Source: an uncultured bacterium (lineage in GTDB: Bacteria > Patescibacteriota > Doudnabacteria > UBA920). Taken from it: a stretch of DNA of 64,000 bases. Position 1 is the stretch's first letter, and every line of letters begins with the position of its first letter. A program made the translations under genes and the position numbers. The notes beneath the pieces are model-generated. The model had not been told where the DNA came from. It was given only the letters and a program-made list of their open reading frames with translations, and ran no database searches. Shown here in pieces: positions 1,908 to 53,836 of this stretch. Location: NCBI GenBank assembly GCA_963749445.1, contig CAVVMJ010000004.1:93015-157014 (forward strand), read 5' to 3'.

Positions 1908-3173
1908 ATGCTTGCCACGATACTTATTTTTATAATAATCCTTGGCGTTCTCATATTCGTCCACGAATTTGGGCATTTTGTGGTGGCCAAAAAAAGCGGG
2001 ATGAAGGTGGATGAGTTTGGGTTTGGGTTCCCGCCCAGGATGTTTGGGATTTATCAGGTTGACGGAAAATGGCGGTGGGTGTGGGGGCATAAAAATCCAT
2101 CGGCGACTCCAACCACCCCGTCCCGACTACGTCGGGACACCCCTCCTCAGCAAGGAGGGGAAGCTCCGCGGTTATCCCAGCAAAACTTCGGAGACTCTTC
2201 CCCTGATAAGGGGGAGTACCTCGCGAAGCGAGGGGAGGGGGTTGGAGATGAAACGGTTTACTCCATCAACTGGATTCCGCTAGGCGGGTTTGTGAAAATC
2301 CGCGGCGAGAATAATGAAAACGAGGATGACCCGCGTTCTTTTATCAACCGGCCGTTTTGGCCGCGGCTGGCTACTTTAGTGGCCGGCGTGTTTATGAATT
2401 TTGTGCTGGCTTGGGTGTTGATGTCAATCGGCGCGGGGATTGGCCTGCCCGCGGCCATCAGCAGTCCCAATGATTTGCCGGCCCACGCGCGTTTGGTTAA
2501 TCCCCAAATCGCCATCTTGGAGGTAATGCCCAATGCTCCGGCGGCCAAAGCCGGGCTAATGTCCGGCGATGTTATTTTGGATATAAATCACCAGCCTTTT
2601 GCCAGCGGCGAGGACATGAGTAATTATGTAAAAACGCACGCCGGCCAGAGTTTTTTATTTGACGTGGACCGCGACGGACAAAAATTATCCGTCAGCGTCC
2701 AGTCAATCGCCAATCCCGGCCCCAACCAGGGTCCAACCGGAATACAGTTAGCCAGCGTGGGCAAGCTGGTGTTCCCTTGGTATTTGGCGCCGTGGGAAGG
2801 GTTAAAGGTTTTGTATATTCAAACTTCCAGTTTCCTTTCGGGTTTGGGCCAGTTGATTACCGGTAAAGTGAGCGTTAGCAATTTAGGCGGCCCGGTAAAA
2901 ATCGCGCAAATAACCGGCCAGGTCCGGGCCATGGGTTTTGATTACCTGCTCCAGTTTGCCGCGTTTTTAAGCATTAATTTAGCGATTTTGAACATCCTGC
3001 CATTCCCGGCGCTAGACGGCGGCCGCGTGCTGTTTTTGATAATTGAAAAAGTCCGCCGCAAGCGCAATAATCAGGTCGTTGAACAATGGGTCAACACCAT
3101 CGGCTTCGCGCTTTTGATTTTGCTGATGGTCTTTGTTACGGCGCATGATGTTTTCAATATTTTTCACAAGTAA
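1908..3173 (+). CDS. rseP: RseP-like site-2 protease (M50 zinc metalloprotease with PDZ) carrying an in-frame palindromic repeat insertion
   Basis: HEFGHFVVAKK HExxH motif at N-term TM helix, PDZ-like segment (ILEVMPNAPAAKAGLMSGDVILDIN), C-terminal LDGG motif; residues ~TPTTPSRLRRDTPPQQGGEAPRL..SPDKGEYLAKRGEGVGD encoded by repeat element at 2109..2245. Confidence 0.85.
   Translation: MLATILIFIIILGVLIFVHEFGHFVVAKKSGMKVDEFGFGFPPRMFGIYQVDGKWRWVWGHKNPSATPTTPSRLRRDTPPQQGGEAPRLSQQNFGDSSPDKGEYLAKRGEGVGDETVYSINWIPLGGFVKIRGENNENEDDPRSFINRPFWPRLATLVAGVFMNFVLAWVLMSIGAGIGLPAAISSPNDLPAHARLVNPQIAILEVMPNAPAAKAGLMSGDVILDINHQPFASGEDMSNYVKTHAGQSFLFDVDRDGQKLSVSVQSIANPGPNQGPTGIQLASVGKLVFPWYLAPWEGLKVLYIQTSSFLSGLGQLITGKVSVSNLGGPVKIAQITGQVRAMGFDYLLQFAAFLSINLAILNILPFPALDGGRVLFLIIEKVRRKRNNQVVEQWVNTIGFALLILLMVFVTAHDVFNIFHK
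2109..2245 (+). repeat. RPE-like modular palindromic element, in-frame copy inside rseP
   Basis: ccaaccaccccgtc..gtcgggacacccctcctcagcaaggaggggaagctccgcg..ctcttcccctgataagggggagtacctcgcgaagcgaggggagggggttgg; nested hairpins and terminal inverted repeat ccaaccaccc/gggggttgg; highly similar to 28275..28407. Confidence 0.85.
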
Positions 3174-3185: not shown

Positions 3186-3802
3186 CCATCCCGACCGACG
3201 AGTGCAGCCGACCCGTTCGGCAATACTCAGGGTCGCCCTGAGCGAAGTCGAATGGGCGAGGAGTGGAGGGATCTGTTAAAATATATGCACTACTATGTAT
3301 ATATTATGTCCAGCTTAAGCGGAGTCTTATATATCGGATTTACTTCGGATTTAAGGAAAAGGGTATTTGAACATAAGAATGATATCGTTGAAGGATTTAC
3401 CAAGAAGTATAGGTGCCACAAACTAGTGTATTACGAGGCTGGTGAAAGTTTTGAAGGAGTGCTGGAACGTGAAAAGCAATTAAAGAAGTGGAGACGTGAT
3501 AAAAAAATTTGGCTGATCGAGAAAATTAATCCCACTTGGAAAGATTTAACCCCTGAGCTGGGAGTATAAAAATAATAAATAACAGATCCCTCCACTCCCC
3601 CTCGACTCGTTCCGATAAAGTCCGGATCTCACTCGGGGTCGGTCGGGATGGAAAGCCCCGTATTCCATTCCGAGCGAGCGGCAACAATAAGCAAATCGCG
3701 AGCCGAGGAATCTGTCAGACAAGATTACTTTATCAATTAAATTAATAGATCCCTCCACTCCGGCTGGCTTGGTATTGCGATGACAGCCGTCGGTCGGAAT
3801 GG
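3186..3802 (+). mobile_element. GIY-YIG nuclease cassette bounded by nested inverted repeats
   Basis: Perfect 18-bp IR GGAGTGGAGGGATCTGTT (3260-3277) / AACAGATCCCTCCACTCC (3581-3598) flank the ORF; outer IR ccatcccgaccgac (3186-3200) / gtcggtcgggatgg (3638-3651); extra partial copies at 3746-3761 and 3788-3802. Confidence 0.6.
3285..3569 (+). CDS. small GIY-YIG family nuclease (ORF track start 3252; likely start MHYYVYIM at 3285)
   Basis: YYVYIMSSLSGVLYIGFTSDLRKRVFEHKN...KLVYYE...REKQLKKW = GIY-YIG motif block. Confidence 0.75.
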   Translation: MHYYVYIMSSLSGVLYIGFTSDLRKRVFEHKNDIVEGFTKKYRCHKLVYYEAGESFEGVLEREKQLKKWRRDKKIWLIEKINPTWKDLTPELGV

Positions 3803-5061: not shown

Positions 5062-5135
5062 CGTAAAATAAAAATCAAAATTTAAAATTCCAAATCCGGC
5101 ATCAAACCATTGGGATTTTATTTTGTGATTTATAT

Positions 5136-5300
5136 AAGTGTCATCCCGGAATTTTCAGTTTCGGTATAATCAAGCCTGAAAATATCCGGGATCCAGTATC
5201 GGGACTTGACACGATAATTTCTTGTTCTGGATACCGGATATTTTTGACTTACTGATGTTATCCCCAAAGTCAAAAATTCCGGTATGACAAGAGAAAAGGC
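5136..5300. repeat. two tandem copies of the CCGGAATTTTT...AAAAATATCCGGGATCCAG hairpin-repeat family
   Basis: gtgtcatcccggaattttcag..ctgaaaatatccgggatccag and ccggatatttttgac..gtcaaaaattccggtatgacaag; related copies at 1846-1900, 15466-15532, 29286-29360, 50648-50815. Confidence 0.7.
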
Positions 5301-6384: not shown

Positions 6385-6520
6385 CCAAAATGGTAATAAG
6401 TTGTAGGTTTTGGCAACCGGTACGGTTATAAATAAGTAGGGAGTAAGGCTCTGCCTAACTACAATTGACCTACAACCATACTGGCCGCCACACCTTACAA
6501 CTTATTACTATCAATCAACA
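6385..6520. repeat. large hairpin repeat, GGCGGCCAGTAC family (copy a)
   Basis: long imperfect inverted repeat around ...tactggccgccacacc...; related copies at 8010-8218, 16540-16655, 31222-31345, 36487-36605, each immediately downstream of a gene. Confidence 0.65.
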
Positions 6521-7320: not shown

Positions 7321-7340
7321 ACCGCTGACCCGTTTGGCAA

Positions 7341-7372
7341 TGCTCAGGGTCACCTTGAGCAAAGCCGAAAGG
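7341..7372. repeat. CTCAGGGTCACCCTGAG palindrome-family copy
   Basis: gctcagggtcaccttgagc; other copies 3220-3250, 37521-37556, 49551-49600; often followed by 'gaatggacgctgaa' and short CAGCGACCAATCAGCG-type direct repeats. Confidence 0.6.
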
Positions 7373-7474
7373 TGAATGGACGCTGAATTTAACACCAACG
7401 CTGATTGGACGCTGAAGCGTCAAGTTCAGCTCAGCGACCAATCAGCGTACCCATCAGCGACCAATCAGCGGTAT

Positions 7475-8008
7475 ATGAAATACTTTGTATACATCTTGCT
7501 ATTAATCGTGCTCTGCGGCCTTCAGGCCGGGCTGGCGCAGGTTGTAAATATCCGCGGCCAAACCCCGCAGCTTTTGTTTTTATTGGTGTTTGTCTGGTCT
7601 TTGGACAAAAACGACCGGGATTATTTGTTTCTGACTTTGGGCGCCGGGCTGTTTTTGGATTTTTATTCCGGCGTCCCGGTGGGCAGCATAACCTTGCCGC
7701 TTTTGGCAATCAGCCTGCTGCTGCATCAACTGGTGGAAAATTTTTTGGCTTTGGAGCTCAGCCCGAAATTGTTGGCGGCTTTGCTGCTGCCGGCCCAGGC
7801 CGTGTTTTATGTACTGTATTTTTTTTGTTTGCGGTGGCTTCCCGGCTCGCGCCTGCCGGTTTTAATTCCCGGGCTGCGGTTTTTGGCCGGTAACTTTGTC
7901 ATCGCGTTCGCCTATAATTTGCTGTTTTTGTATCCCGTATTTTTATTGGTTGAATTTGTGAGGTCATTCATTCATCGCCATTTTGAGCGCGAATACAAAA
8001 TCCAGTAA
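7475..8008 (+). CDS. mreD: rod-shape determining protein MreD (likely start MKYFVYILL; ORF track start 7376 runs through repeats)
   Basis: polytopic hydrophobic protein immediately after mreC, before PBP2. Confidence 0.7.
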   Translation: MKYFVYILLLIVLCGLQAGLAQVVNIRGQTPQLLFLLVFVWSLDKNDRDYLFLTLGAGLFLDFYSGVPVGSITLPLLAISLLLHQLVENFLALELSPKLLAALLLPAQAVFYVLYFFCLRWLPGSRLPVLIPGLRFLAGNFVIAFAYNLLFLYPVFLLVEFVRSFIHRHFEREYKIQ

Positions 8009-8009
8009 A

Positions 8010-8218
8010 TCCTATTAATGGTAGCAAGGTATAGGGTGTGGCGGCCAGTACAGAAATAAGTAGCAAGGTATAAGGTGTGGCGTCCGGTGTGGTTGTAAGG
8101 AATAGGTTTTAGGTAACATATACCTTAAAACCTACTACTGCACCGGGCGCCAAAACTAATACCCTATTACCATTCCCCGTACCGGCCGCCATAACTTATA
8201 CCCTATTACATATTCTTC
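8010..8218. repeat. large hairpin repeat, GGCGGCCAGTAC family (copy b, duplicated arms)
   Basis: ggtgtggcggccagtacag...gtaccggccgccataactta. Confidence 0.65.
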
Positions 8219-13223: not shown

Positions 13224-13249
13224 GGGATTTTTGCTATAATTAATTCATC

Positions 13250-13648
13250 ATGTCACAAAGAAAGAAAATCCTCTTGGTGGAAGACGATAACGCTTTACGC
13301 GCCACGCTTCGCGACCGGCTGCAGGGAGCGTATGAAATTTTTGAAGCCCCGGACGGCGAACTGGCGGTTTCCCAATGCGTTGACCACCGGCCGGACTTAA
13401 TTCTCCTGGATTTGCTGCTGCCCAGGCTGGACGGCTTTAAGGTTTTGGAGCGGATTAGGGCTTATCCCGACGCCAATGTGGCCAAAACGCCGGTGATTGT
13501 GTTGAGCAACCTTTGGAGCCAAAAGGACATATTGCAGGTCCAGGGCCTCAAAGTTAACGAATACTTTGTCAAAGCCCACACCAAAGTGGAAGATGTCGTG
13601 GTTCGTATCCGCGCGGTTTTCAAAAACAGCCCGGTTGGGCGGGTTTGA
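13250..13648 (+). CDS. stand-alone response-regulator receiver domain protein (paralog 1 of 3)
   Basis: KILLVEDD...D(LILLD)...PVIVLSNL...YFVK; CheY-like, no output domain. Confidence 0.85.
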   Translation: MSQRKKILLVEDDNALRATLRDRLQGAYEIFEAPDGELAVSQCVDHRPDLILLDLLLPRLDGFKVLERIRAYPDANVAKTPVIVLSNLWSQKDILQVQGLKVNEYFVKAHTKVEDVVVRIRAVFKNSPVGRV

Positions 13649-15356: not shown

Positions 15357-15362
15357 AAGTAT

Positions 15363-15451
15363 GTGAAATCGCGAGTGCAGCCGAAGCGATCCCGCTAATA
15401 CCGTATAGTGTAAGGGATTGCTTCGGTCGGATGCACTCCCTCGCAATTTCC
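15363..15451. repeat. GAAATTGCGAG...CTCGCAATTTC nested-hairpin repeat family copy
   Basis: gtgaaatcgcgagtgcagccgaagcgatccc...ggattgcttcggtcggatgcactccctcgcaatttcc; other copies 16007-16083, 30193-30292, 44252-44336. Confidence 0.7.
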
Positions 15452-15535
15452 GATAATTTGTGTCCATCCCGGAATTTTTTGTGCCGATGGATAGCACAAG
15501 CCGCAAAAAATACCCGGGATCCAGAAAGTAATCGT

Positions 15536-15853: not shown

Positions 15854-16006
15854 TTATTTTATCCCTAATTCATGACTCGCGCTTCTCGAATTATGAATAA
15901 AGAATAAAATTAAGTATATACCAAAGTATATACTTCGGTATATACTTTTAGAAAGGAATGGTTGGTTCCGATATTTATCGGGATCTCGATCGCACTAAAA
16001 AGTTTT

Positions 16007-16083
16007 GTGAAATTGCGAGTGCAGCCGAAGCAATCCCCTTAAATAATGAGATTGCTTCGTCGGATGCACTCCTCGCAATTTCC
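16007..16083. repeat. GAAATTGCGAG hairpin-repeat family copy
   Basis: gtgaaattgcgagtgcagccgaagcaatcccc..gattgcttcgtcggatgcactcctcgcaatttcc. Confidence 0.7.
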
Positions 16084-16112
16084 AGAGCAGCGGTCTACCA
16101 TCATAAAAATAT

Positions 16113-16538
16113 ATGGCTAAGAAAGTTAAGGTTCAGCTAAAATTACAGTTACCGGCCGGAAAGGCCACGCCGGCGCCGCCGGTGGGCACGGCTTTGGGCC
16201 CGCACGGCATTAATTTGGGCGCGTTTGTTAAGGATTTTAACGACAAGACCGCGGCAATGGGGGATACTATCGTGCCTATAGTTATGACGATCTACGAAGA
16301 TCGCAGTTTTTCGTTTATCTTAAAAACCCCGCCGGCTTCCAATTTGATTATGAAGGCCATCGGCCTGGCAAAAGGGTCCGCGAATCCATTAACGACAAAG
16401 GTCGGCAAGATCACCGCCAAGCAAGTGCGGGAGATTGCGGAAAAGAAAATGCCGGATCTAAACGCCAACGATATGGCCGCGGCGGAAAAAATTATCCGCG
16501 GCACCGCTAGGTCAATGGGGGTGGAAGTTATTGATTAG
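16113..16538 (+). CDS. rplK: 50S ribosomal protein L11
   Basis: [43 protein letters not shown]... Confidence 0.95.
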
Positions 16539-16539
16539 T

Positions 16540-16655
16540 AGTAGGTTATAAGGTATAGCGGCCAGTACAGTAATAAGGTATGGGTTTTAAGTGGCCTTAT
16601 TACCAATGCCTTACAACTAAACCGGCCGCCATAACCTATAACCATTAACCTAAAA
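16540..16655. repeat. large hairpin repeat, GGCGGCCAGTAC family (copy c)
   Basis: ttataaggtatagcggccagtac...aaccggccgccataacctataa. Confidence 0.7.
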
Positions 16656-16658
16656 TTT

Positions 16659-17426
16659 ATGGACATCCTTTGGTTAGTCGTCGTCATCTTCGTCTTCTTT
16701 ATCCTGCCGGCGTTCCGCATTATCCAGCAGTACCAAAAAGGCGTGGTGTTTAGGTTTGGAAAAATTGTGGGGCTGCGCGGCCCGGGGCTGACTATGGTCA
16801 TACCGTACATTGACAAAGTCAGGAAAGTGGATTTGCGCACCATTACTCTGCCCATACCGGCGCAGCAAATTATCACCAAGGACAACGTTTCCCTGAACGT
16901 CTCGGCCGTGGCTTATTACCAGGTCACGGACGCGGTTAAGAGCATTGTGGCCATAGAAAATGTTATGTCGGCCATTAACCAAATCGCGCAAACCACAATG
17001 CGCAACATTGTCGGCAAGTTCCAGCTGGATGAAATTTTGAGCGAGCGCGACACAATTAACCAGGAAATCCGCAGCGTGCTGGACGAACGCACTGAGCCGT
17101 GGGGTGTAGTGGTCTCTGTTGTGGAAATTAAAGACATTGAACTGCCGGAAAATATGCAGCGCGCCATGGCCAAACAGGCCGAAGCCGAACGCGAAAAGCG
17201 CGCCAAGATAATCGCGGCCGAAGGCGAATTTTTATCGGTCCAAAAATTGGCCGACGCCGCCGACGTCATTTCGGCGCACCCGATTGCACTGCAGCTGCGC
17301 AACCTCCAGACGATGGCTGAAATATCCGTAGAAAAAAATTCCACCATCATCTTCCCCGCGCAGTTTATGGGCACGCTTTCGGATATTAAAAAATTCATAG
17401 CGGACGAAAGCGCAAAAACGATTTAG
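16659..17426 (+). CDS. SPFH/band-7 (stomatin/QmcA-like) membrane protein
   Basis: N-terminal TM then IIQQYQKGVVFRFGKIVGLRGPGLTMVIPYIDKV...; C-terminal coiled coil; inserted between rplK and rplA. Confidence 0.8.
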   Translation: MDILWLVVVIFVFFILPAFRIIQQYQKGVVFRFGKIVGLRGPGLTMVIPYIDKVRKVDLRTITLPIPAQQIITKDNVSLNVSAVAYYQVTDAVKSIVAIENVMSAINQIAQTTMRNIVGKFQLDEILSERDTINQEIRSVLDERTEPWGVVVSVVEIKDIELPENMQRAMAKQAEAEREKRAKIIAAEGEFLSVQKLADAADVISAHPIALQLRNLQTMAEISVEKNSTIIFPAQFMGTLSDIKKFIADESAKTI

Positions 17427-17433
17427 CTGAAGC

Positions 17434-17531
17434 TTGATGGGCATCTTCGTGTTTCTACGACCGCTTACGATGGTTATCAGTTAACGATAAATTGAAGTTG
17501 GTGGTTGTTTTGGCAAGAAGATGCCCATCAA
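17434..17531. mobile_element. MITE-like 99-bp element, copy 1 (TIR TTGATGGGCATCTTCGTG)
   Basis: ttgatgggcatcttcgtg...cttgccaa motifs...aagatgcccatcaa; intergenic between SPFH gene and rplA leader. Confidence 0.85.
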
Positions 17532-17664
17532 CATAAAGTGTTAAATTATTTTAATTAATTTGTGGGACCTGTTTTAAGTGTAGCGCGCCGATTCATCGGC
17601 TGCAGCCCAATAAATTGGGCACACTACATAGCACGGGGCTTGCACCACGAAAGGAAAGTTTACG

Positions 17665-18345
17665 ATGAAAATCGCAAAAAGGGTCAAAGCCAACAATGAG
17701 TTGGTGGACAAGGAAAAGCTATACACGGCCGAAGAAGCCATTGAGCTGGCCAAAAAAACCGCGAATACCAAGTTTGTCGGGTCAATGGAAGTTCATGTCC
17801 GTTTGATGATCGATGCCAAAAAAACCGACCAGTCCATCCGCGGCATGGCAAACTTGCCGCACGGCACGGGCAAGAGCAAAAAAGTGGCGGCGTTTGTATC
17901 GGAAGCCAAGGAAAAGGAAGCCAAGGATGCCGGCGCCACTATAGTCGGGGGTGAGGAGCTAATCAAAAAAATCAAGGAATCGGAAAAGACGGACTTTGAT
18001 ATTGCCGTAGCAGAACCCTCTATAATGCCAAAATTGGCCCAAATCGCCAAGATTTTAGGACCCCGCGGCCTTATGCCCAACCCTAAAACCGGCACTGTCT
18101 CAGCCGATATTGGCAAGGTTATCCGCGAAATCGCGGGCGGTAAGGTGGATTTTAAGAACGATGACAGCGGCAATATCCACCAAATCATCGGCAAGAGCAA
18201 TTTTGACTCGGCCAAGCTTTTGGAGAATTTCCAGGCGTTCATCAAGGCCGTGCAATCGGCCAAGCCCGCGGCGGTTAAAGGGCAGTATATTGCTTCCGTG
18301 TCGCTAAATGCCACGATGGGACCGGGGATAAAAATAAAGATTTAA
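17665..18345 (+). CDS. rplA: 50S ribosomal protein L1
   Basis: MKIAKRVKANNELVDKEKLYTAEEAIELAKK...HGTGKSKKVAAF... Confidence 0.95.
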   Translation: MKIAKRVKANNELVDKEKLYTAEEAIELAKKTANTKFVGSMEVHVRLMIDAKKTDQSIRGMANLPHGTGKSKKVAAFVSEAKEKEAKDAGATIVGGEELIKKIKESEKTDFDIAVAEPSIMPKLAQIAKILGPRGLMPNPKTGTVSADIGKVIREIAGGKVDFKNDDSGNIHQIIGKSNFDSAKLLENFQAFIKAVQSAKPAAVKGQYIASVSLNATMGPGIKIKI

Positions 18346-20839: not shown

Positions 20840-20938
20840 TTGATGGGCATCTTCGTGGTTCCATAAACGCTAACTGATGATTATCGGCTAACTATAAATA
20901 ACGGCCGAAGATTGTTTTGGCAAGGAGATGCCCATCAA
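20840..20938. mobile_element. MITE-like 99-bp element, copy 2
   Basis: ttgatgggcatcttcgtggttccataaacg...ggcaaggagatgcccatcaa. Confidence 0.85.
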
Positions 20939-21961: not shown

Positions 21962-22060
21962 TTGATGGGCACCTTCGCTGTTCCACAATCGCTGATTGAT
22001 TGTTGTCGGATAGTGTAGGATTGAGATCGAAGATTGTGTTGGCAAGAAGGTGCCCATCAA
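21962..22060. mobile_element. MITE-like 99-bp element, copy 3 (slightly diverged TIRs)
   Basis: ttgatgggcaccttcgctgttccacaatcg...ggcaagaaggtgcccatcaa. Confidence 0.8.
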
Positions 22061-23972: not shown

Positions 23973-24109
23973 GCGGAGCCTCTCCTCCTATTTATAGGAG
24001 GAGTACCCTGCGTCAGCAGGGGGAGGTGGTATTAATACTTGCCGATTAGTACCACCTCGTCCCGCTTCGCGGGACACCCCTCCTATGCAAGGAGGGGAAT
24101 GCTCCGCGG
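23973..24109. repeat. RPE-like modular palindromic element, intergenic copy (modules in swapped order)
   Basis: gcggagcctctcctcctatttataggaggagtac...gtcccgcttcgcgggacacccctcctatgcaaggaggggaatgctccgcgg. Confidence 0.8.
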
Positions 24110-27963: not shown

Positions 27964-28021
27964 GTGCAGAGGTTCGCGTAAGTTTGCCGCGGCCTCTTTT
28001 TTTTGTCATAATACCTATGAA

Positions 28022-29254
28022 ATGAACGAACTCATCAAGCGGCTGGAAAATCTCAAATCCGAAATCTCAAATCTGAAATCCCATTTGGATTTGCCCCAAA
28101 AGGAGCAGAGGATCTTGGAATTGGAAGACAAGATGCAGGTTCCAAATTTTTGGAATGATAATGAAAACGCCCAAAGAATATCAAAGGATTATAACCAGTT
28201 AAAGCTGTTTGTTGATTTTTGGAAAGATTTGGAAAAGGATATCCAGGAAACACTGGATTTGGTTAAAGACACTCCAACCACCCCGTCTGCTTTGCAGACA
28301 CCCCTCCTTGAAAAGGAGGGGAATGCTCCGCATGTATCCCCGAACAAACGCGGAGCCTCTCCCCCTGACAAGGGGGAGTACTCCGCGAAGCGGGGGGAGG
28401 GGGTTGGAGATATAAAAATATCCGATGCGGATTATCTTAGGCAACATACGGAACAGCTGGAGGAACAATACCGCAAAAACCGTTTTGTTGCGCTGCTTTC
28501 CAAAAAATACGACGACCACAACGCAATTTTTTCTCTGCACAGCGGCGCCGGGGGGCTTGACGCCCAGGATTGGGCGGAAATGCTCCTGCGGATGTTTTTA
28601 CGCTATTGTGAACGCCGGGGATTTATTACAGAAATTTTAGAATCAAACCGCGGAGCGGAAGGCGGCATTAAATCGGCTGTTGTGGAAGTTCACGGGCCGT
28701 ATGCTTACGGCTTGCTAAAAAGCGAGGCCGGCGTTCATCGGCTTGTCCGATTGTCGCCGTTTAATCCCGCGCACACCCGCGAAACCTCTTTCGCGCTTTT
28801 GGAAGTTTTGCCGCTTTTGGAAGATGTAGAAAAAATTGACATCGACCCCAAAGATTTAAAAATAGAAGCCAATACCGCCTCTGGCCACGGCGGGCAATCG
28901 GTCAATACCACTTATTCCGCCATCCGGATTACGCATATTCCCACCGGCCTTAAAGTCAGCATCCAAAACGAGCGCTCCCAGCACCAAAACCGCGAAATCG
29001 CCATGAAAATTTTGATGGCTAAGTTGAAAACTTTGGAAGAGGAAAAATTGCAACAGGAAAAACTGGAAATTCGTGGGGAATTTAAATCGGCCGAATGGGG
29101 AAACCAAATTCGCTCCTACGTTATCCATCCCTACAAACTGGTCAAAGACCACCGTACCGGTTTTGAAACCTCAGACCCGGATAGCGTTCTAAACGGTGAA
29201 CTGGACGAGTTTGTGGAAAGATATTTGGAAAAAACCGCGGTGACCGCTGAATAG
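28022..29254 (+). CDS. prfB: peptide chain release factor 2 (single uninterrupted ORF) with in-frame palindromic repeat insertion
   Basis: GGQ (SGHGGQSVNTT), SPF motif (RLSPF) = RF2; start MNELIKRLENL; residues TPTTPSALQTPLLEKEGNAPHVSPNKRGASPPDKGEYSAKRGEGVGD encoded by repeat 28275..28407. Confidence 0.9.
   Translation: MNELIKRLENLKSEISNLKSHLDLPQKEQRILELEDKMQVPNFWNDNENAQRISKDYNQLKLFVDFWKDLEKDIQETLDLVKDTPTTPSALQTPLLEKEGNAPHVSPNKRGASPPDKGEYSAKRGEGVGDIKISDADYLRQHTEQLEEQYRKNRFVALLSKKYDDHNAIFSLHSGAGGLDAQDWAEMLLRMFLRYCERRGFITEILESNRGAEGGIKSAVVEVHGPYAYGLLKSEAGVHRLVRLSPFNPAHTRETSFALLEVLPLLEDVEKIDIDPKDLKIEANTASGHGGQSVNTTYSAIRITHIPTGLKVSIQNERSQHQNREIAMKILMAKLKTLEEEKLQQEKLEIRGEFKSAEWGNQIRSYVIHPYKLVKDHRTGFETSDPDSVLNGELDEFVERYLEKTAVTAE
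28275..28407 (+). repeat. RPE-like modular palindromic element, in-frame copy inside prfB
   Basis: ccaaccaccccgtc..gacacccctccttgaaaaggaggggaatgctccgc..gcggagcctctccccctgacaagggggagtactccgcgaagcggggggagggggttgg. Confidence 0.85.
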
Positions 29255-29469
29255 ACGCTGATATGTACGCTGATCTGTCGCTGAAACCCAATGTGTCCAT
29301 CCCGGAATTTTTTGCGCTGATGATTATCATGGGTCGCAAAAAATATTCGGGATCCAGGCACACGTTTCTTTCCCTTTTGCCAATTTTTTGGTACAATGTA
29401 CTTATAAACATCGCTTTGAAATAAATACTGACCGGCTGATAAGCGTATCAGCTGATAAGCTTGTAAGCT

Positions 29470-30192: not shown

Positions 30193-30292
30193 GAAATTGC
30201 GAGCCCTAAGTGCACCCGAAGGGCGCGGCAATCCCTCTCTTTAATAGGATTGCTTCGTCGCCAGACAAAGCCCTGGCTCCTCGCAATTTCAC
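30193..30292. repeat. GAAATTGCGAG hairpin-repeat family copy (between ftsE and ftsX)
   Basis: ggaaattgcgagccctaagtgcacccgaagggcgcggcaatccc...ggattgcttcgtcgcc...ctcctcgcaatttcac. Confidence 0.7.
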
Positions 30293-31221: not shown

Positions 31222-31345
31222 TGTATAGTTGTAAGGTATAAGGCGTGGCGGCCGGTACGGTTATTGGGATATGGTCTTGGGTGACTTATGCCCTATTACT
31301 TATTACTACACTGGCCGCTATTCCTTATAACCTATGACTTTCAGG
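31222..31345. repeat. large hairpin repeat, GGCGGCCAGTAC family (copy d)
   Basis: ggcgtggcggccggtacgg...cactggccgctattcc. Confidence 0.65.
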
Positions 31346-31528
31346 GGAATTTGACAAACTTATAGCATCGGGTATACTAACAAAGAGCCCAAATAGCGAC
31401 TCTCGCGAACCGGGGCTTTTTTTGTTAGTAGTAATCCCAAATAAACAAATCAACACAAATATACAAATACTGGCAACCCGCAGCAATTTGTATATTTGTT
31501 TATATTTGTATATTTGCGAACACTACAT

Positions 31529-31974: not shown

Positions 31975-32054
31975 TCTTTCGCGGATACGCGGATATCACG
32001 GATAACACCGACCGCGAAATCCGCGCCATCTGCGTATCCGCGAACCAAACAATT

Positions 32055-35434: not shown

Positions 35435-35533
35435 TTGATGGGCATCTTCTTGCCAACACAATCCTCGACCGTTGTTTGTCATTATTCGATGATTATCAGT
35501 TGGCGATTGTGGAACCACGAAGATGCCCATCAA
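35435..35533. mobile_element. MITE-like 99-bp element, copy 4 (opposite internal orientation)
   Basis: ttgatgggcatcttcttgccaacacaatcctcgacc...gtggaaccacgaagatgcccatcaa. Confidence 0.85.
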
Positions 35534-36485: not shown

Positions 36486-36486
36486 G

Positions 36487-36605
36487 GTTTTGGTTGTAAG
36501 GTATGGCGGCCAGTATAGTAATAGGTTTTGGGTTGTAAGTAACTTATAACTTTTTACCTACAACTATACTGGCGGCCACAACTTAAAGCTTATTACTTTT
36601 TAAAA
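36487..36605. repeat. large hairpin repeat, GGCGGCCAGTAC family (copy e)
   Basis: gtatggcggccagtatagtaatagg...ctatactggcggccacaactt. Confidence 0.7.
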
Positions 36606-37354: not shown

Positions 37355-37591
37355 GGCCACCGGCCACCCTCGGAATATCGGCAAAACCGCGGAGCCTCTC
37401 TCCTTTTGAGGAGAGATGTCCCGCGCTTTGTTTAAGAATTATAATAGCCAAAGCGAGGGACAGAGAGGTTGCCTGGCTTGATTATTGCAACCTCTCCCTA
37501 GCCTCCCCTCACCACTTCGGCTTCGCTCAGGGTGACCCTGAGCCTTGCCGAAAGGGTCAAAAGGGGAGGGAGCTCCGCAGATAATCCAAAT

Positions 37592-39332: not shown

Positions 39333-39379
39333 CTTAACAAATTTGTGTTATACTAAATTAAATGGTTTGGTCTGCGGTC

Positions 39380-39478
39380 TTGATGGGCATCTTCATGGTT
39401 CCACAAACCTCAATCAATAACTATCCGGTAATGATAAATAACGGTCGAGGGTTGTATTGGCATGAAGATGCCCATCAA
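39380..39478. mobile_element. MITE-like 99-bp element, copy 5
   Basis: ttgatgggcatcttcatggttccacaaacc...ggcatgaagatgcccatcaa. Confidence 0.85.
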
Positions 39479-39499
39479 GCGAGACAGAGTTTAATCAGA

Positions 39500-39901
39500 A
39501 TGTTCACTTACGTCGAAATCAAAAGCTGGCTTTCAGAAAAAGAAAATAAGCAGAAAATCATTTATGGTATCTGCTTTATTTTAGTGTTTATTATCGGTTT
39601 CGGCACCGGAAAGCTTAATCAGGATAGTTACGGGTTAACATCACAAAAGCAAGTTAATTATAGCACAAAATCAACATCAAATCCAGCTCCGGCCGCCGCT
39701 AGCAAGGCGGGGGACAACGCCACTTTGGTTAAAGGCACCAGCACGCCGGCCAGCTGTGTGATTAAGGGCAATATCAACTCCAAAGGTTATAAAATTTACC
39801 ACGTTCCCGGCGGCCAGTATTATAAAATCGTCAAACCCGAGCAGTGTTTTAATACGGAAGCCGAGGCTCAGGCCGCGGGATTTGTGAAGTCTTCTCGGTA
39901 A
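39500..39901 (+). CDS. small membrane-anchored protein with conserved Cys-containing C-terminal motif
   Basis: start MFTYVEIKS after MITE; TM helix; C-term CVIKGNINSKGYKIYHVPGGQYYKIVKPEQCFNTEAEAQAAGF. Confidence 0.35.
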   Translation: MFTYVEIKSWLSEKENKQKIIYGICFILVFIIGFGTGKLNQDSYGLTSQKQVNYSTKSTSNPAPAAASKAGDNATLVKGTSTPASCVIKGNINSKGYKIYHVPGGQYYKIVKPEQCFNTEAEAQAAGFVKSSR

Positions 39902-39934: not shown

Positions 39935-40033
39935 TTGATGGGCATTTTCGTGGTTCCACAAACCGCAATTAATAATTATTGGATGACGATAAACAACGGT
40001 CGAGGATTGGGTTGACACGAAGATGCCCATCAA
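39935..40033. mobile_element. MITE-like 99-bp element, copy 6 (abuts the 5' end of the desulfurase gene)
   Basis: ttgatgggcattttcgtggttccacaaaccg...gacacgaagatgcccatcaa. Confidence 0.85.
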
Positions 40034-40065
40034 AGCTATGTATTTTTAAAATTCTTATAATCATT

Positions 40066-41307
40066 TTGCCTAAAGCGAAGAAATTAAAGAATTCAATTTA
40101 CCTTGATTACGCCGCGACCACGCCGGTTGACCCGGCGGTTTTAGATGCGATGCGGCCTTATTGGAGCAAGGCTTTTGGCAATCCCAGCAGCCTTTATAAA
40201 CAGGGGATGGAGGCAAAAAAGGCGGTTGATAATTCCCGAAAAACCATCGCGGATATTTTGGGAGCACGGCCATCGGAAATTATTTTTACCGCCGGCGGCA
40301 CGGAAAGCTGTAACCTCGCCATACTAGGAGTTGCCAATATGGCGAGACGAAAGAACACGAACAGAAAGACGAAAAAACACGAAAAATTTCATATCATCAC
40401 TTCTTCGATTGAGCACCATGCCGTGTTAAAACCAATTGAGGCACTGAAAGGGGAGGGGTATAAAATTACCATCCTTGATGTTGATTCTGACGGGCTGATA
40501 AATATCAGGGGTTTGGAAAAAGCAATTCGTCCGGAAACTGTTTTGGTTTCTATTATGTATGCCAACAATGAGATCGGAACAATAGAGCCAATCACGGAGA
40601 TAGGGAAGCGGATAGCACGGATTAATATCGATCGCAGAAAGAAAAATCATCCGCCAATCATTTTTCACACCGACGCGTGCCAGGCAGCCGGCAGTTTGGA
40701 TTTGAAAGTTAACCGGCTAAATGTGGACTTGATGTCAGTCAACGGCAGTAAAATTTATGGTCCAAAACAAAGCGGCTTTTTATTTGTTAGGAACGGGGTG
40801 AATTTAAAGCCATTGATTTACGGCGGCGGACAGGAGCGGAATTTGCGCAGCGGCACGGAAAACGTTGCGGGCATTGTCGGTTTAGCTAAAGCTTTGGCGT
40901 TGGCACAGAAAAATAGAAAAATAGAGAATAAGAGAATTAGTAGATTACAGTCCTATTTTATCGATGAGCTGACCAAAATCCAGGGGGTTCAACTAAATGG
41001 CCCTGTGGCTGGCAACCAAAGGCTGGCTAACAATCTTAACGTAACGATTAAAGGCGTGGAAGGCGAAGCCTTGATGTTGTATTTGGACGCTTATGGGATT
41101 GCGGTTTCCACGGGCAGCGCCTGCACTACCGGCCTGGCTGACCCATCCCATGCCCTGATGGCTATCGGATGTACTCCGGAGCAGGCCAAGAGCAGTATCC
41201 GGTTGACTATGGGCAAACAGACCACCAAAAGGCAGATTGATTATGTGTTAAAGGCTTTGTCGCCGTTAATAAAGCAGCTTCGGAAAACCAAAAACTTTTT
41301 ATTATAG
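40066..41307 (+). CDS. cysteine desulfurase (IscS/NifS family); probable TTG start just after MITE
   Basis: YLDYAATTP, PLP-Lys region SVNGSKIYGPK, catalytic Cys STGSACTTG; Lys-rich insert RRKNTNRKTKKHEK. Confidence 0.8.
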   Translation: MPKAKKLKNSIYLDYAATTPVDPAVLDAMRPYWSKAFGNPSSLYKQGMEAKKAVDNSRKTIADILGARPSEIIFTAGGTESCNLAILGVANMARRKNTNRKTKKHEKFHIITSSIEHHAVLKPIEALKGEGYKITILDVDSDGLINIRGLEKAIRPETVLVSIMYANNEIGTIEPITEIGKRIARINIDRRKKNHPPIIFHTDACQAAGSLDLKVNRLNVDLMSVNGSKIYGPKQSGFLFVRNGVNLKPLIYGGGQERNLRSGTENVAGIVGLAKALALAQKNRKIENKRISRLQSYFIDELTKIQGVQLNGPVAGNQRLANNLNVTIKGVEGEALMLYLDAYGIAVSTGSACTTGLADPSHALMAIGCTPEQAKSSIRLTMGKQTTKRQIDYVLKALSPLIKQLRKTKNFLL

Positions 41308-42669: not shown

Positions 42670-42768
42670 TTGATGGGCATCTTCGTGCCAATGCAACCCT
42701 CGACCATTGTTTATCGTCGGCCGATAATTACCGTCTGACGTTTGTGGAACCACGAAGATGCCCATCAA
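42670..42768. mobile_element. MITE-like 99-bp element, copy 7
   Basis: ttgatgggcatcttcgtgccaatgcaaccctcgacc...gtggaaccacgaagatgcccatcaa. Confidence 0.85.
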
Positions 42769-44251: not shown

Positions 44252-44336
44252 GAAATTGCGAGCCCCGATGCAGAGGGGCGCGGCAATCCCGTAAAATGTC
44301 GGGATTGCTTCGTCGGATGCACTCCTCGCAATTTCC
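44252..44336. repeat. GAAATTGCGAG hairpin-repeat family copy
   Basis: gaaattgcgagccccgatgcagaggggcgcggcaatccc...gggattgcttcgtcggatgcactcctcgcaatttcc. Confidence 0.7.
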
Positions 44337-44343
44337 GGATATT

Positions 44344-45888
44344 TTAAGACAATTTTTTTATGGCGCATTTTATCCGGCTCAAAATTTCCGGCTTGCCTGG
44401 TCCAATTGCTAAAGTCGCGGCCACCTCAAACGGCCCCGGGCTTTTGTCCGCTCCAGTCAAAGCGACCCTTAGCGGCCACAGGACTGAACCATTGTCAAAA
44501 TTATTATCCAATATAAATTTTTTGATTTGCGTTTCCAGATTTTCGCGGCTGAAATCCGTCATCAAGTTAAATAAATCGGATAATTCCTGCAAAGCCTGTT
44601 TGGTTTTTTCTTTATTCGATTTTTTCCAGACGAGTAGCCCGGCGTCGTAATCAGGCGCCGCAAAAAAGTAGCGCGTCCTCTCCCCTATCTCGGAAAGTTT
44701 TTTGAGGCGTTCTTTTTCCAACGTTGTTATGGCAGTTAGGTAATTTTTTCCAGACGTATTTTTAACGGCCGTTAAAAATACGTCTGTTTTGCCGATTGTT
44801 AAATCGTTTTGCCAATAGGGAATAAGCCGGTCAGTTAACTCTTCTATCGGCATTTGGCGGACGTAATGGCTGTTTACCCAATCCAGTTTGTTAATGTCAA
44901 AAATCGCGGGAGATTTGTTGATTTTTGCCAAATCAAAATCGCCGATCAATTCTTTCATCGACGGATAAAATTCTTTTTCGGTTTTTGGGTTCCAGCCCAA
45001 AAACGCCACAAAATTTATCAGTGCTTCTTTTAAATAGCCTTTAGCCAAAAAATCTTCCACCAATACGTCACCCTGGCGTTTGCTTAATTTGGTTTTATCC
45101 GGATTGACGATTAACGGCAAGTGCGCGAACTGCGTCGGCTCCCAGCCGAGCGCCTGGTAAATCAGCAAATGCTTGGGTGTGGACGGAATCCATTCCTCGC
45201 CGCGGATCACGTGGCTGATTTGCATATAATGGTCGTCCACAACCACGGCCAAATGATAGGTTGGGAAGCCGTCGGATTTAATGATGACCTGATCATCCAA
45301 AATTTTGTGTTCATAGGTAATGTCGCCATAAACAATATCGTGAACCACAGTTTGGCCTTCCAGTGGGATGGCAAAACGGATTACCGGATTTTTACCCGCG
45401 GCCTTGAATTCCTCAAGTTGTTTTTTTACTTCGTCGGCTTTTAAATTCCGGCAGTGCCGGTCGTACATCGGCGGTTTTTTTAAAGCCGTTTGTTCCTTGC
45501 GCAAATCTTCCAGCCTTTGCTCGCTGCAAAAACAATAATAGGCTTTGCCTTTGGCGATTAATTCCTGCGCGTGCCGCTGATATTTATCAAGCCGTTTGGA
45601 TTGCAGATATGGCCCAAATTTACCCCTCTCCCCTACTCCGTCGTTATTTTGTAAATAAAAACCTTCATCAAATTCCACGCCCAAGGTTTTCATCACGCCT
45701 AATAAATTTTCCAGCGCGCCTTCCACTAACCGATTCTGGTCGGTATCTTCAATCCTTAAAATATTAACGCCGTTGTTGTGGCGCGCGAAAAGATACGCGA
45801 ACAGCGCGGTGCGCAAACTGCCAATGTGAACAAACCCCGTGGGGCTGGGCGCGAACCGCGTGCGTATTGCGGAATTTTTATCAGTCAT
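44344..45888 (-). CDS. gltX: glutamyl-tRNA synthetase
   Basis: IRTRFAPSPTGFVHIGSLRTALF (HIGH), KLSKR (KMSKS). Confidence 0.95.
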   Translation of the reverse strand: MTDKNSAIRTRFAPSPTGFVHIGSLRTALFAYLFARHNNGVNILRIEDTDQNRLVEGALENLLGVMKTLGVEFDEGFYLQNNDGVGERGKFGPYLQSKRLDKYQRHAQELIAKGKAYYCFCSEQRLEDLRKEQTALKKPPMYDRHCRNLKADEVKKQLEEFKAAGKNPVIRFAIPLEGQTVVHDIVYGDITYEHKILDDQVIIKSDGFPTYHLAVVVDDHYMQISHVIRGEEWIPSTPKHLLIYQALGWEPTQFAHLPLIVNPDKTKLSKRQGDVLVEDFLAKGYLKEALINFVAFLGWNPKTEKEFYPSMKELIGDFDLAKINKSPAIFDINKLDWVNSHYVRQMPIEELTDRLIPYWQNDLTIGKTDVFLTAVKNTSGKNYLTAITTLEKERLKKLSEIGERTRYFFAAPDYDAGLLVWKKSNKEKTKQALQELSDLFNLMTDFSRENLETQIKKFILDNNFDNGSVLWPLRVALTGADKSPGPFEVAATLAIGPGKPEILSRIKCAIKKLS

Positions 45889-45929: not shown

Positions 45930-47378
45930 TTAAGCCAAATCTTTCAAATCATCCATGACTATTTTTGTCAGGCTGGCTCTTTCGGAATGGATAGCTTTGT
46001 CCAGTTGGTCGACCGGAACCCATCGAAAACCCATAAACTCGTGATGATCAACATAAACTTTGTCATCCGCGCCTAAAAATTTAAAATAGGCAATATTTTG
46101 AACCTGCCCGATGTTTTTATGCCTGCGGTTGTGCCAAAATTTACGCGCGGCGTTATTCCAAATGTAAGTGTTGGTATGCGGGGAGATTTTGATAAATTCT
46201 AAATTTTTTATTCCGGTTTCTTCCAGGGCTTCTCTTTTTGCCGCTTGTATTAGATTTTCTGTGCCGTCTATTCCTCCTTGCGGCAACTGCCAGTAATTTG
46301 CTCTCTTTAAATTTTCTTTTGTCGTCATAACATCGACGTGGAAATTTTTGGGGTCGCGCTGGCAAACCAGGACTTCATTTTTTTTATTAAGAATGGCTAT
46401 CGCGATGTTCGGCCTTAAGGGCAGGTTCGCAAAAACTTTATAGTGCCACAGGGCGGATGCCAGGCCGAAAGTCGCGTTAATAATTCTGGGCAGGCGCTTG
46501 GGCTGGGTGAACAGGCGCCAGAGCCATTCCAGGCCCGTTCGGCGCAAAAAACGCGGCGGCTGGGGCTGTTTGCCGGCGATGTAGTCAAATGTTCCGCCCA
46601 GGCCGACAACCAGTTTTATGGGCAAATCCGGCAAGTTTTTGGCAATCCACTTTTCCTGCCTGATTGGACCGAAGGCCACAAACAAGAGGTCAGGCGCCGC
46701 CTTTTTTATGTCCTCGATAATGGTCGGGTTATCAGGGTTTTTGTTTGACCACCCGGCCACCTTGAGTTTACTAGCTGATTTGCTTATTAGCTTATCAGCT
46801 GCTAATTTTGGTGTGTCGCCGAATCCGCCTAAAAGGTAAACTGATAAATTATTATCAACAGCCAGTTTTGCCAAATCCCAAACCAAATCTGCGCCGGGGA
46901 TTTTTTCTTTCATACCACCTCCCCCGCCTGCGGCGGGTACTCCTCCTATGATAGGAGGAGAGCTCCGCGTGTCATCCGAGGATAGCTGCGGAGCGTCCCC
47001 TCCTAAAGTAGGAGGGGTGGCCGCGTTAGCGGACGGGGTGGTATTGTAAATAAATTTTGGATAAAAAACTATCGCCGCCAAACTGTATTTAATTTGCCAC
47101 GCTGCCTGCAGAATTTTTCCCCAGTAGGATTTGGCGGTAAGAGGAATTGATAAATATCGGGCGGCCCAAAACAAACCAATGCCGTCGGGCACGGCAATGT
47201 CAGCGGAATTTAAAATTTGCATCACTTCCGGGTCCAGCAACGCGGCGCGTAAAAACTCGGAGTACGGCGTGATTAGCCAGGTTTTTTGCCCGTTTTTTAT
47301 CTGCTGGCGTAAGCGTTCAAGCAATTCGGCTTTCGTCAGCGCGTCAATTTTCAATCCCGCGATGTCGATTTTGTCCAT
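45930..47378 (-). CDS. WecB/TagA/CpsF-family glycosyltransferase fused to C-terminal NUDIX hydrolase, with in-frame repeat insertion (start MDKIDIAGL; ORF track extends to 47750)
   Basis: TagA-like LITPYSEFLRAALLDPEVMQILNSADIAVPDGIGLFWAAR; Nudix box GGIDGTENLIQAAKREALEETGI; residues ATPPTLGGDAPQLSSDDTRSSPPIIGGVPAAGGGGG encoded by repeat 46915..47042. Confidence 0.6.
   Translation of the reverse strand: MDKIDIAGLKIDALTKAELLERLRQQIKNGQKTWLITPYSEFLRAALLDPEVMQILNSADIAVPDGIGLFWAARYLSIPLTAKSYWGKILQAAWQIKYSLAAIVFYPKFIYNTTPSANAATPPTLGGDAPQLSSDDTRSSPPIIGGVPAAGGGGGMKEKIPGADLVWDLAKLAVDNNLSVYLLGGFGDTPKLAADKLISKSASKLKVAGWSNKNPDNPTIIEDIKKAAPDLLFVAFGPIRQEKWIAKNLPDLPIKLVVGLGGTFDYIAGKQPQPPRFLRRTGLEWLWRLFTQPKRLPRIINATFGLASALWHYKVFANLPLRPNIAIAILNKKNEVLVCQRDPKNFHVDVMTTKENLKRANYWQLPQGGIDGTENLIQAAKREALEETGIKNLEFIKISPHTNTYIWNNAARKFWHNRRHKNIGQVQNIAYFKFLGADDKVYVDHHEFMGFRWVPVDQLDKAIHSERASLTKIVMDDLKDLA
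46915..47042 (-). repeat. RPE-like modular palindromic element, in-frame copy inside tagA-NUDIX gene
   Basis: reverse complement reads ccaccccgtccgctaacgcggccacccctcctactttaggaggggacgctccgc...cgcggagctctcctcctatcataggaggagtac...gcgggggaggtgg; same translation frame as copies in rseP/prfB. Confidence 0.8.
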
Positions 47379-47431
47379 AATTGAATTATATCCTATTTTA
47401 GCCTGATTTGATAGCATTTTTTTGATCTTTC

Positions 47432-47725
47432 GTGTATAATCCCAATATGGAATCCATAGGAAAAATCGCCAAATTTCCATCAGCAAAACCAAAAAAAGAC
47501 GTCCATCTCCACTCACCGGCCCACCTTTTGGCCGATGAATTATGCCACAAGCTGAATGACAAAAAACATTTTGGTTTTTATTTAAAGATGGCGACTTTGT
47601 ACGATCACAATTGGCTGCGCGGTTTGGCCGGGCAGGTGCTGGAAGGCAAAAATGTGGCCACGCCCGGAAGGTTGTTTGCGTATTTGATAAAGAAGCATAA
47701 CCAAGAGTCAAGAAGCAAGAATTAA
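47432..47725 (+). CDS. hypothetical small protein
   Basis: ORF only. Confidence 0.25.
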   Translation: MYNPNMESIGKIAKFPSAKPKKDVHLHSPAHLLADELCHKLNDKKHFGFYLKMATLYDHNWLRGLAGQVLEGKNVATPGRLFAYLIKKHNQESRSKN

Positions 47726-47730
47726 GAGTC

Positions 47731-49536: not shown

Positions 49537-49667
49537 ACGCTGACCCATTCGACGATGCTCAGGGTCACCCCGAGTATCGTCGAGGGAAGACGGGTACGCT
49601 GAATGGACGCTGAAAAGCGCGATTCAGCGACAAATCAGCGTAGTAATCAGCGACAAATCAGCGGGAT

Positions 49668-50647: not shown

Positions 50648-50815
50648 TAAAATTTTATTGGTGTCATCCCGGAATTTTTCGCGTACCGGATTATTATCGG
50701 CCGCGAAAAATATCCGGGACTCAGTATACGGTATCTGGATTCCAGATATTTTTGATATTTTTGGTTGCCGATGATTTTCCAATTTTAACCAAAAATTCCG
50801 GAATGACACAAGGGC
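50648..50815. repeat. CCGGAATTTTT hairpin-repeat family, composite copy
   Basis: gtgtcatcccggaatttttcgcg...cgcgaaaaatatccgggactcag...ccaaaaattccggaatgacacaag. Confidence 0.7.
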
Positions 50816-52053: not shown

Positions 52054-52181
52054 AGGGTTTTGATTTATTTTTAAACGATTTTATTTAGCCAAATTGCGAT
52101 ATTCATCACCATTGATGATCTGAAACAATTTTTTTGCGAGCCAGACATTTCACTTTAAAGCGTTGGGTTAATTATAGCACA

Positions 52182-53835: not shown

Positions 53836-53836
53836 T

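Follow-up and report, generated by a model that had tools for sequence, protein, structure and literature searches.

We analysed a 64,000-nucleotide stretch of DNA (hereafter the window) from an uncultured Doudnabacteria bacterium of the Patescibacteriota (assembly GCA_963749445.1, contig CAVVMJ010000004.1, positions 93,015 to 157,014 of the forward strand) and found in it nine full-length copies of a non-coding repeat, 98-100 bp long, that is bounded by inverted ends and folds as one long imperfect hairpin. The family is old, has been gained or lost at many sites and has expanded in this lineage without recent activity, and its ends are kept intact by purifying selection at individual loci. 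We lean, with somewhat better than even confidence, towards reading it as a foldback element similar to the REPINs, which are built from inverted repetitive extragenic palindromic (REP) sequences. The base of its hairpin would be recognised in trans, and the element would have spread without target duplication or been co-opted by the host. This preference stems from the close fit of the published REPIN description, which is weighed below against other readings.

The copies were located by searching the whole window for the 18-mer TTGATGGGCAYCTTCGTG, tolerating up to three mismatches and taking the expectation from shuffles, and by a profile hidden Markov model (HMM) of the family. The 18-mer matched 18 times (0-2 mismatches each) where 0.10 matches were expected, and the matches pair into nine inverted pairs, so that inverted TTGATGGGCATCTTC ends bound every one of the nine copies. 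The HMM returned the same nine and no others, with E-values of 1e-22 to 1e-29 for eight and of 5e-10 for the copy at 60022; its next matches all had E>1, so that by this model the window holds neither fragments nor decayed copies. Both searches confirm the nine starts listed in the initial annotation, which a model had made from the sequence alone. Together the copies sum to ~1.4% of the window; subfamily A, to which eight of them belong, is described below.

Copy 1, 17434-17531, minus strand: 98 bp, subfamily A; a Band_7/HflK-like gene ends 7 nt before it and rplA begins 133 nt after it.
Copy 2, 20840-20938, minus strand: 99 bp, subfamily A; between the convergent genes dcd and folA, whose stops lie at distances of 36 and 32 nt, respectively.
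Copy 3, 21962-22060, minus strand: 99 bp, subfamily A; compensated end variant CACCTTC/GAAGGTG.
Copy 4, 35435-35533, plus strand: 99 bp, subfamily A; an AbrB-family gene ends 9 nt before it and an ABC ATPase gene begins 136 nt after it.
Copy 5, 39380-39478, minus strand: 99 bp, subfamily A; between a divergent methyltransferase-like gene and the gene of a sunset-domain protein.
Copy 6, 39935-40033, minus strand: 99 bp, subfamily A; 33 nt past the sunset-domain stop, closely followed by a TATAAT box (40055-40060) and the probable start of nifS.
Copy 7, 42670-42768, plus strand: 99 bp, subfamily A; perfect 18-bp terminal stem.
Copy 8, 58028-58126, plus strand: 99 bp, subfamily A; 6 nt past a response-regulator stop, marking the right-hand border of the ~6-kb segment at 52.1-58.1 kb.
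Copy 9, 60022-60121, no strand assigned: 100 bp, a different interior subfamily, nearest to L019_714 (L numbers denote loci fetched from relatives).

The description of one family of ~99 bp holds for length, with the correction that the interior of copy 9 is of another subfamily. All nine copies lie outside genes supported by Pfam or NCBIfam domains, and several start 6-9 nt downstream of a stop codon, in keeping with the earlier remark that they are intergenic and that several abut start or stop codons. They are also not tandem duplicates of one locus, being dispersed at distances of 0.5-15 kb in unrelated gene contexts. Copy 7 sits between two minus-strand genes, 17 nt from the stop of an M23 peptidase gene and 14 nt from the start of a transglycosylase gene. 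Copy 9 lies 16 nt upstream of the queA start and overlaps by 4 nt the stop of the open reading frame (ORF) 60118-60990, whose stop codon (the TCA of CATCAA) comes from the end of the element. Together with the copies on contigs of relatives, these nine make up a set of 45 elements, most of which begin 0-10 nt past a stop codon and have that stop nearer to them than the start of the following gene. Four times the stop codon is itself the TGA within TTGATGG. Elements are also found between divergent genes (copy 5) and, on the reverse strand of L009 (~1040-1090), between a TATAAT box and a start codon.

Each element is laid out as two inverted copies of an end of 15-18 nt, TTGATGGGCATCTTC(GTG), around an AT-rich, poorly conserved spacer of ~65-69 nt. 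The terminal inverted repeats (TIRs) of 18 bp first described are real as inverted ends, and in many copies they reach 18-21 bp, but the near-invariant perfect stem comprises only the outer 15 bp: positions 16-18 vary, with position 16 mismatched in about half of all elements and positions 17-18 mostly paired, and pairing further inward is irregular. Element length is 96-104 bp (one of 109) over the 45 elements despite unrelated interiors, and the centres of the two ends keep a constant spacing of ~84 bp. As RNA, all nine window copies fold as one long imperfect hairpin with free energies of -37 to -47 kcal/mol and z-scores of -5.9 to -9.6, copy 1 being at the stable end (-46.7 kcal/mol, z -9.6); folding of two copies with DNA parameters gave z-scores of -5.6 and -6.3.

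The sharpest feature of the family is the contrast between ends and interior. Among the eight A-type window copies, 7 of 240 end positions differ from the consensus (2.9%), against 99 of 504 interior positions (19.6%; Fisher p 2e-11), so that the ends are conserved ~7-fold better than the spacer they enclose. Where ends do change, they mostly change in pairs. At stem position 10, A-T has become G-C six times with one unpaired case, and position 11 shows five double changes and no single one; double changes occur at 13 of the 21 stem pairs, and the observed values were reached in 0 of 500 shuffles. Even strongly altered ends stay self-complementary, as in TTGATGGGAACCATCAGGGA (L014), TTGATGGGCACTTGCTTTGCC (L018) and TTGAAGGGAGTCT (L043).

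Subfamily A comprises the eight window copies and eleven from relatives. Its arm TTTGTGGAACCAC is far better conserved than the partner arm GTGCCAAyACAA, which leaves a conserved asymmetric 4x4 internal loop, CCAA opposite GAAC, and makes the orientation of each copy readable (reference orientation 5'-end...GTGCCAAyACAA...TTTGTGGAACCAC...end-3'). The conserved arm holds a GTGG-AA-CCAC core, and the canonical end holds a short imperfect palindrome, GATG-GG-CATC; both cores are missing from subfamily B and from the L043 variant. Subfamily B is a second, non-palindromic interior type with 11 copies, and many further interiors are singletons with no detectable similarity. A and B could not be brought into a common orientation, as HMM cross-scores are equal both ways, and a second palindrome beside one end failed as an orientation mark because B lacks it. 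Within A, the copies at 17434, 20840, 21962, 39380 and 39935 point one way and those at 35435, 42670 and 58028 the other. Whole elements inserted in both orientations (five versus three) are thus enough to explain why interior submotifs had been noticed in either orientation, and the invertible or recombining core proposed on that basis is not needed.

At one site, however, inversion may have occurred. The junction of copy 3 (21962-22060) is also filled in L017 (670-768), where the element runs the other way with respect to its flanking genes: aligned in the inverted sense the two match at 70 of 99 positions without a gap, versus 66 of 105 with gaps in the same sense. Such an arrangement could have arisen either by in-situ inversion between the inverted ends or by independent insertion.

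We next consider how widely and for how long the family has existed. The window is co-linear over ~10 kb with L003, a contig titled Candidatus Doudnabacteria, at 70-79% nucleotide identity. Its QueA has a best homologue of 71% identity among 5.8 billion proteins searched, with the named matches being Doudnabacteria or 'Patescibacteria group'; G+C content is 42-51%, and a sunset domain protein is encoded. When one genome for each of 185,579 species was scanned for the exact pattern, three genomes matched, once each, namely two metagenome-assembled genomes (MAGs) labelled Saccharibacteria and one Doudnabacteria MAG. Among metagenome contigs, a relaxed scan picked out 32 that carry the element, and viral-contig, plasmid and phage collections gave no element match. 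The same ends and a length of 97-104 bp recur around unrelated interiors in the contigs of the three Patescibacteria MAGs and in the 32 metagenome contigs. Since all finds beyond the window come from MAGs with a Patescibacteria label or from metagenome contigs without a label, mostly with few copies each, the abundance of the family here points to expansion in this lineage; ~77 kb around queA in four relatives (QueA 67-71% identical) holds one copy (L043), versus nine in 64 kb here.

The initial annotation took this density as a sign of recent activity, which the data contradict. Pairwise interior identity of the window copies is 54-81% (median 72%), and junctions are filled in common with diverged relatives: that of copy 3 in L017 and that of copy 9 in L014 (3991-4090), in both cases with flanking genes ~67-68% identical and with intact ends. 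Other sites are filled in relatives and empty in the window (L003_4549, window 31975-32054; L009, L006 and L030, window 13224-13249), and L013_1116 and L014_8623 are filled where the window counterpart, at 51613, consists of overlapping YceG and YjbQ genes with no element. Presence and absence thus differ between related genomes, so that in the course of evolution the element must have moved or disappeared from sites. Upstream of queA, the spacer holds the focal element in the window and in L014, unlike in L041 (4889-4950) and L042 (4707-4768), where the same junction holds another palindrome, perfect and rich in GC, GAGGGGAGCCCTCTGGGG....CCCCAGAGGGCTCCCCTC.

REPINs as described in the literature come close to this family. 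In them, inverted conserved REPs enclose a spacer that is less conserved yet still folds as a hairpin; the dominant spacing is 71 bp, the element measures ~89 bp and its location is extragenic, copies are diverse, several families may occupy one genome, duplication is very slow and vertical persistence long (PMC3337134; bioRxiv 10.1101/2021.07.10.451892). REPINs are mobilised by RAYT tyrosine transposases and are known from Pseudomonas and enterobacteria (Bertels & Rainey 2011, PMC3116915, PMC3337134). The focal family shares with them inverted conserved short ends, a foldable variable spacer, a total of ~90-110 bp with one dominant fixed spacing, extragenic placement in both orientations, diverse long-lived copies and the presence of several families in one genome. 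On the REPIN-like reading, a protein encoded elsewhere in the genome would recognise the element in trans through its fixed-sequence stem and the conserved asymmetric internal-loop nucleotides (in the main subfamily those of the TTTGTGGAACCAC arm). At a low rate, that protein would have inserted the element, by copying or by moving it, in intergenic DNA, in most cases immediately 3' of stop codons and with no target duplication, and the copies would then persist for long while selection keeps their ends intact. Whereas the structure, conservation and distribution of the repeat are observed here, a single-stranded hairpin as the form recognised, the existence of an enzyme acting in trans (HUH/RAYT-like or other) and any benefit to the host are inferred only; co-option by the host is a real possibility.

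Several observations weigh against this assignment. No RAYT/IS200-like gene and no ORF with an HUH...Y motif was found in six frames of 251 kb (the window and the fetched loci), of which 64 kb cover the host genome, and no transposase or recombinase domain was detected with Pfam and NCBIfam in ~70 window ORFs or beside the copies in L001-L003; with the search confined to 64 kb of the host, membership in a REPIN/RAYT system is unproven. A 5' GTAG tetranucleotide is typical of many REPs of the E. coli type, whereas here none adjoins the ends, which begin TTGATGGG and have variable flanks. REP singlets are nearly absent (L019_683 and L043_6916 only), the palindrome inside the end is short and lost in variants, and the host is a reduced Patescibacteria genome. 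No clean empty site was found in a close relative: the junctions in L003, L009, L012 and L013 (70-80% identity) are rearranged beyond simple insertion, so that no insertion boundaries can be derived from syntenic relatives. Junctions filled in both the window and relatives could be hot spots of independent insertion and not inherited. Lastly, the pattern that retrieved most of the copies outside the window fixes end positions 1-9 and 13, so conservation at these positions outside the window is partly imposed, and the unbiased evidence comes from the window copies and the free positions. The two solo ends are canonical left ends lying directly upstream of complete elements (L019 683-713 and L043 6916-6932), and the one in L043 adjoins a B-type element with both ends changed, to TTGAAGGGAGTCT and AGACTCCCTTCAA.

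A variant that we hold to be improbable, if worth keeping in view, makes the hairpin the substrate not of a RAYT or a DDE transposase but of a hitherto undescribed system specific to the candidate phyla radiation (CPR). Here a structure- and sequence-specific host protein would read the 15-bp stem base and the asymmetric loop and would both propagate and use the element, for instance as a transcript-end or processing signal in a genome without enriched canonical terminators, and several populations of hairpin replicators would co-exist.

It is also rather unlikely, in our judgement, that the element is a non-mobile hairpin with a host function, that is, a 3'-UTR or intergenic structure serving as transcript-end protector, terminator substitute or site for an RNase or other protein, having originated several times or been spread through recombination, and selected locus by locus. 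Purifying selection on the ends at individual loci and the position of most copies just past a stop codon would suit such a role. So would the folding of all five co-directionally flanked window copies, which are more stable on the sense strand, and the orientation of subfamily B, whose copies point the same way, with respect to the co-directional genes beside them, in 6 of 6 clear cases (L008, two copies in L015, L016, L028 and L029) and in 9 of 10 when weaker calls are added. This bias could reflect strand-specific insertion or an orientation-dependent function. The GC-rich palindrome in front of queA in L041 and L042 shows that other hairpins can occupy the same junction, and canonical terminator-like sites are not enriched in the window (16 versus 12.3 expected). 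However, no U-tract (T run) follows CATCAA and a terminator scan calls no element, the sense strand is not favoured over the family as a whole (15:13, p 0.57), and the orientation of subfamily A relative to transcription is only 7:4. Copies are found between divergent genes (39380) and in a 5' leader (L009) as well, and strict identity over 15 nt across lineages would be unusual for a purely structural RNA. Rfam covariance models run over the whole window gave no match at the gathering score, relaxed searching gave only sub-threshold generic miRNA-precursor hairpins, and a tRNA scan gave nothing relevant. Multi-copy families with common arbitrary interiors moreover imply copying and not convergence. 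An outward promoter inside the element was considered and rejected, as the best candidate, TCGACC-17-GATAAT (9 of 12 matches), is not above background.

We consider it quite unlikely that the family is a classic miniature inverted-repeat transposable element (MITE), meaning a deletion derivative of an insertion sequence (IS) whose 18-bp TIRs bind a DDE transposase and which was recently active. The label MITE-like, given initially, stands for a dispersed, non-coding, TIR-bounded repeat, and the small size, intergenic scatter, high local density, presence and absence between relatives and subfamilies with common ends and differing interiors would all agree with it. In the strict sense it is not supported. 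A direct repeat of at least 2 bp (2-8 bp tested) flanks none of the 45 elements, although at 2 bp chance alone should give ~3, and words shared between 12-nt flanks are near the shuffled-partner control (3.47 versus 3.23), so the target-site duplication that the initial annotation proposed to look for is absent. The cognate transposase with matching ends was likewise not found within the 251 kb, which also hold no longer parent or autonomous element and no unpaired long-range TIR with the same ends, and the scanned window ORFs lack a transposase domain. The divergence of the interiors speaks against recent activity, ends conserved in situ so much better than interiors are unexpected for dead MITE copies, and the constant length across unrelated interiors is a further point against this account.

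Very unlikely, in our view, is that the ends are paired duplex-DNA binding sites, two 15-bp operators set ~84 bp (eight turns of the helix) apart for a protein that loops DNA or organises the nucleoid. The constant spacing, the GATG-GG-CATC imperfect palindrome and the AT-rich, bendable interior would suit such a design, but co-variation that preserves end-to-end complementarity, even in very different end variants, would be needless for duplex sites that act independently; the L043 variant no longer has the internal palindrome, and no candidate regulator is linked to the copies. The weakest account, a protein-coding or in-frame insertion element of the Rickettsia palindromic element (RPE) type with a meaningful translation (MGIFVVPQ...EDAHQ), can draw on the length of 99 nt as a multiple of three, on a mechanical ORF (39362-39901, with an alternative ATG at 39500) that reads in-frame through copy 5 and on another window repeat family that is truly in-frame in three genes, but it is essentially refuted by stop codons, which interrupt even the best frame in about half of the A copies and leave it open in few of the B type, as well as by lengths (96-104) that are not all multiples of three and by the position of all nine window copies outside domain-supported coding sequence. 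The ORF-track peptides in question are accordingly translations of the element and not genes, as had been proposed.

The focal family is not alone. At least five further intergenic hairpin-repeat families occur in the window, and some window repeat family or the focal element is present in 26 of 38 spacers of at least 100 bp and in 28 of 53 of at least 40 bp. These other repeats are as follows.

Multi-hairpin repeat of ~142 bp, ACTCCAACCACCCC...GGGGGTTGGAGAT: ~2108-2249, ~28270-28411, ~46914-47045 (minus strand); partial copy 24040-24107.
GTAG family, a long hairpin of ~115-125 nt: 6393-6511, 8021-8212 (doubled), 16538-16652, 31228-31341, 36486-36599.
Motif of ~46 nt centred on the hairpin GCTCAGGGTCACCCTGAGC, four copies: 3206-3251, 7323-7368, 37506-37551, 49538-49583.
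Family CATCCCGGAATTTTTT...AAAAAATACCCGGGAT, intergenic: 15459-15524, 29292-29357, 50659-50724, plus 5121-5155.
Family GCAATCCC...GGGATTGCTTCGTCGGATGCACTCC, intergenic: 15362-15459, 16006-16086, 30228-30260, 44283-44345.
Pair of 46-nt repeats, 96% identical, intergenic: 40-85 and 31480-31525.

The ~142-bp repeat lies within three housekeeping genes, those of an M50 protease (1908-3173), a release factor (28019-29254) and a WecG-NUDIX protein (45930-47750), each time in the same orientation and frame and encoding a TPTTPS...SPPDKGEY.AKRGEGVGD-like peptide; in being in-frame within genes it behaves like the RPEs. The release-factor orthologue of L003 (670-1773) lacks the 47 codons of this repeat. 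In this lineage, then, palindromic repeats are inserted at the DNA level, and mobility of the focal family becomes more plausible. Members of the GTAG family start with GTAG.AAGGTATA.GG.GTGGCGGCC, close with the inverted partner, fold as DNA with z-scores of -3.5 to -5.9 and each follow directly after a stop codon (of mreB, ORF 7376-8008, rplK, an ftsX-like gene and an ABC ATPase gene). One copy of the GCTCAGGGTCACCCTGAGC motif stands directly upstream of a small stand-alone GIY-YIG nuclease ORF (3252-3569). Some of the last three intergenic families in the list also occur in relatives (L015, L008).

Three features of the neighbourhood were also recorded. The segment bordered by copy 8 (52100-58100, ~6 kb) lies between YjbQ and HU, has the lowest G+C content of the window (0.42) and encodes a histidine kinase (in two ORFs), a ThiF-like protein, a 503-aa ORF with no Pfam match, a nitroreductase-like protein and a response regulator; YjbQ and HU are adjacent, without this segment, in L014, L037, L041, L043 and L044. 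The genes rplK and rplA are normally adjacent in one operon, and in the window (16113-18345) a Band_7/HflK-like gene (16659-17426) lies between them, with a GTAG-type repeat before it and copy 1 after it. Finally, TATAAT boxes lie ~5-10 nt upstream of probable starts, at the response regulator gene starting at 13250 (13224-13252) and at the TTG start of nifS at 40066 (40055-40068), which suggests leaderless mRNAs.

A full-text literature search returned no account of repeat populations of the REP, REPIN or MITE type from CPR/Patescibacteria genomes, and a search with the end sequence gave only unrelated primers. CPR/Patescibacteria genomes are regarded as streamlined, yet a single 64-kb stretch carries this load of hairpin repeats. 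The focal family displays the hallmark of REPINs (selected ends, arms that co-vary, a constant length and long persistence) in a lineage far removed from theirs, with no partner enzyme recognised so far. Copy number differs strongly between related genomes, so such a partner, if it exists, could be found by phylogenetic profiling. For annotation, the elements matter because they create spurious ORF extensions and false small proteins, and they mark rearrangement borders, as copy 8 does at the edge of the 6-kb island. Were the CPR-specific system real, a reduced genome would be maintaining several hairpin-replicator populations that take up more than half of its larger spacers and reach even in-frame into essential genes.

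Other known repeat systems share part of this profile. The RPEs of Rickettsia and the enterobacterial repetitive intergenic consensus or intergenic repeat units (ERIC/IRU) are abundant palindromic repeats of ~100-150 bp, and RPEs often lie in-frame within genes. The focal family resembles them in being an abundant palindromic repeat in a small genome; unlike the RPEs it is intergenic, and it has no sequence similarity to RPE or ERIC/IRU. The Correia/NEMIS elements of Neisseria are MITEs with long TIRs and a TA target-site duplication. In Coxiella, QMITE1 and QMITE2 are ~400 and ~190 bp long, and QMITE2 carries 7-9 bp direct repeats (PMC5896051). An identity with QMITE was rejected, as the sequences are unrelated and the host here belongs to the CPR. 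With both groups of bacterial MITEs the focal copies share small size, a non-autonomous, TIR-bounded, intergenic and multi-copy nature, a hairpin when transcribed and the ability to abut genes, and they differ in the missing target-site duplication and in that no parent IS was found. The attC sites of integrons are imperfect palindromes of 57-141 bp that are recognised as a folded single strand, in which sequence conservation is confined to the stem base and asymmetric unpaired bases define the strand, and they lie just 3' of ORFs. Actual attC sites were rejected, since the ends read TTGATGG/CCATCAA and not RYYYAAC/GTTRRRY, the neighbours are housekeeping genes with no array, and the scanned ORFs contain no integrase domain. 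In architecture, the focal element is nonetheless like attC: an imperfect palindrome with a conserved stem base and asymmetric unpaired bases, positioned just 3' of ORFs.

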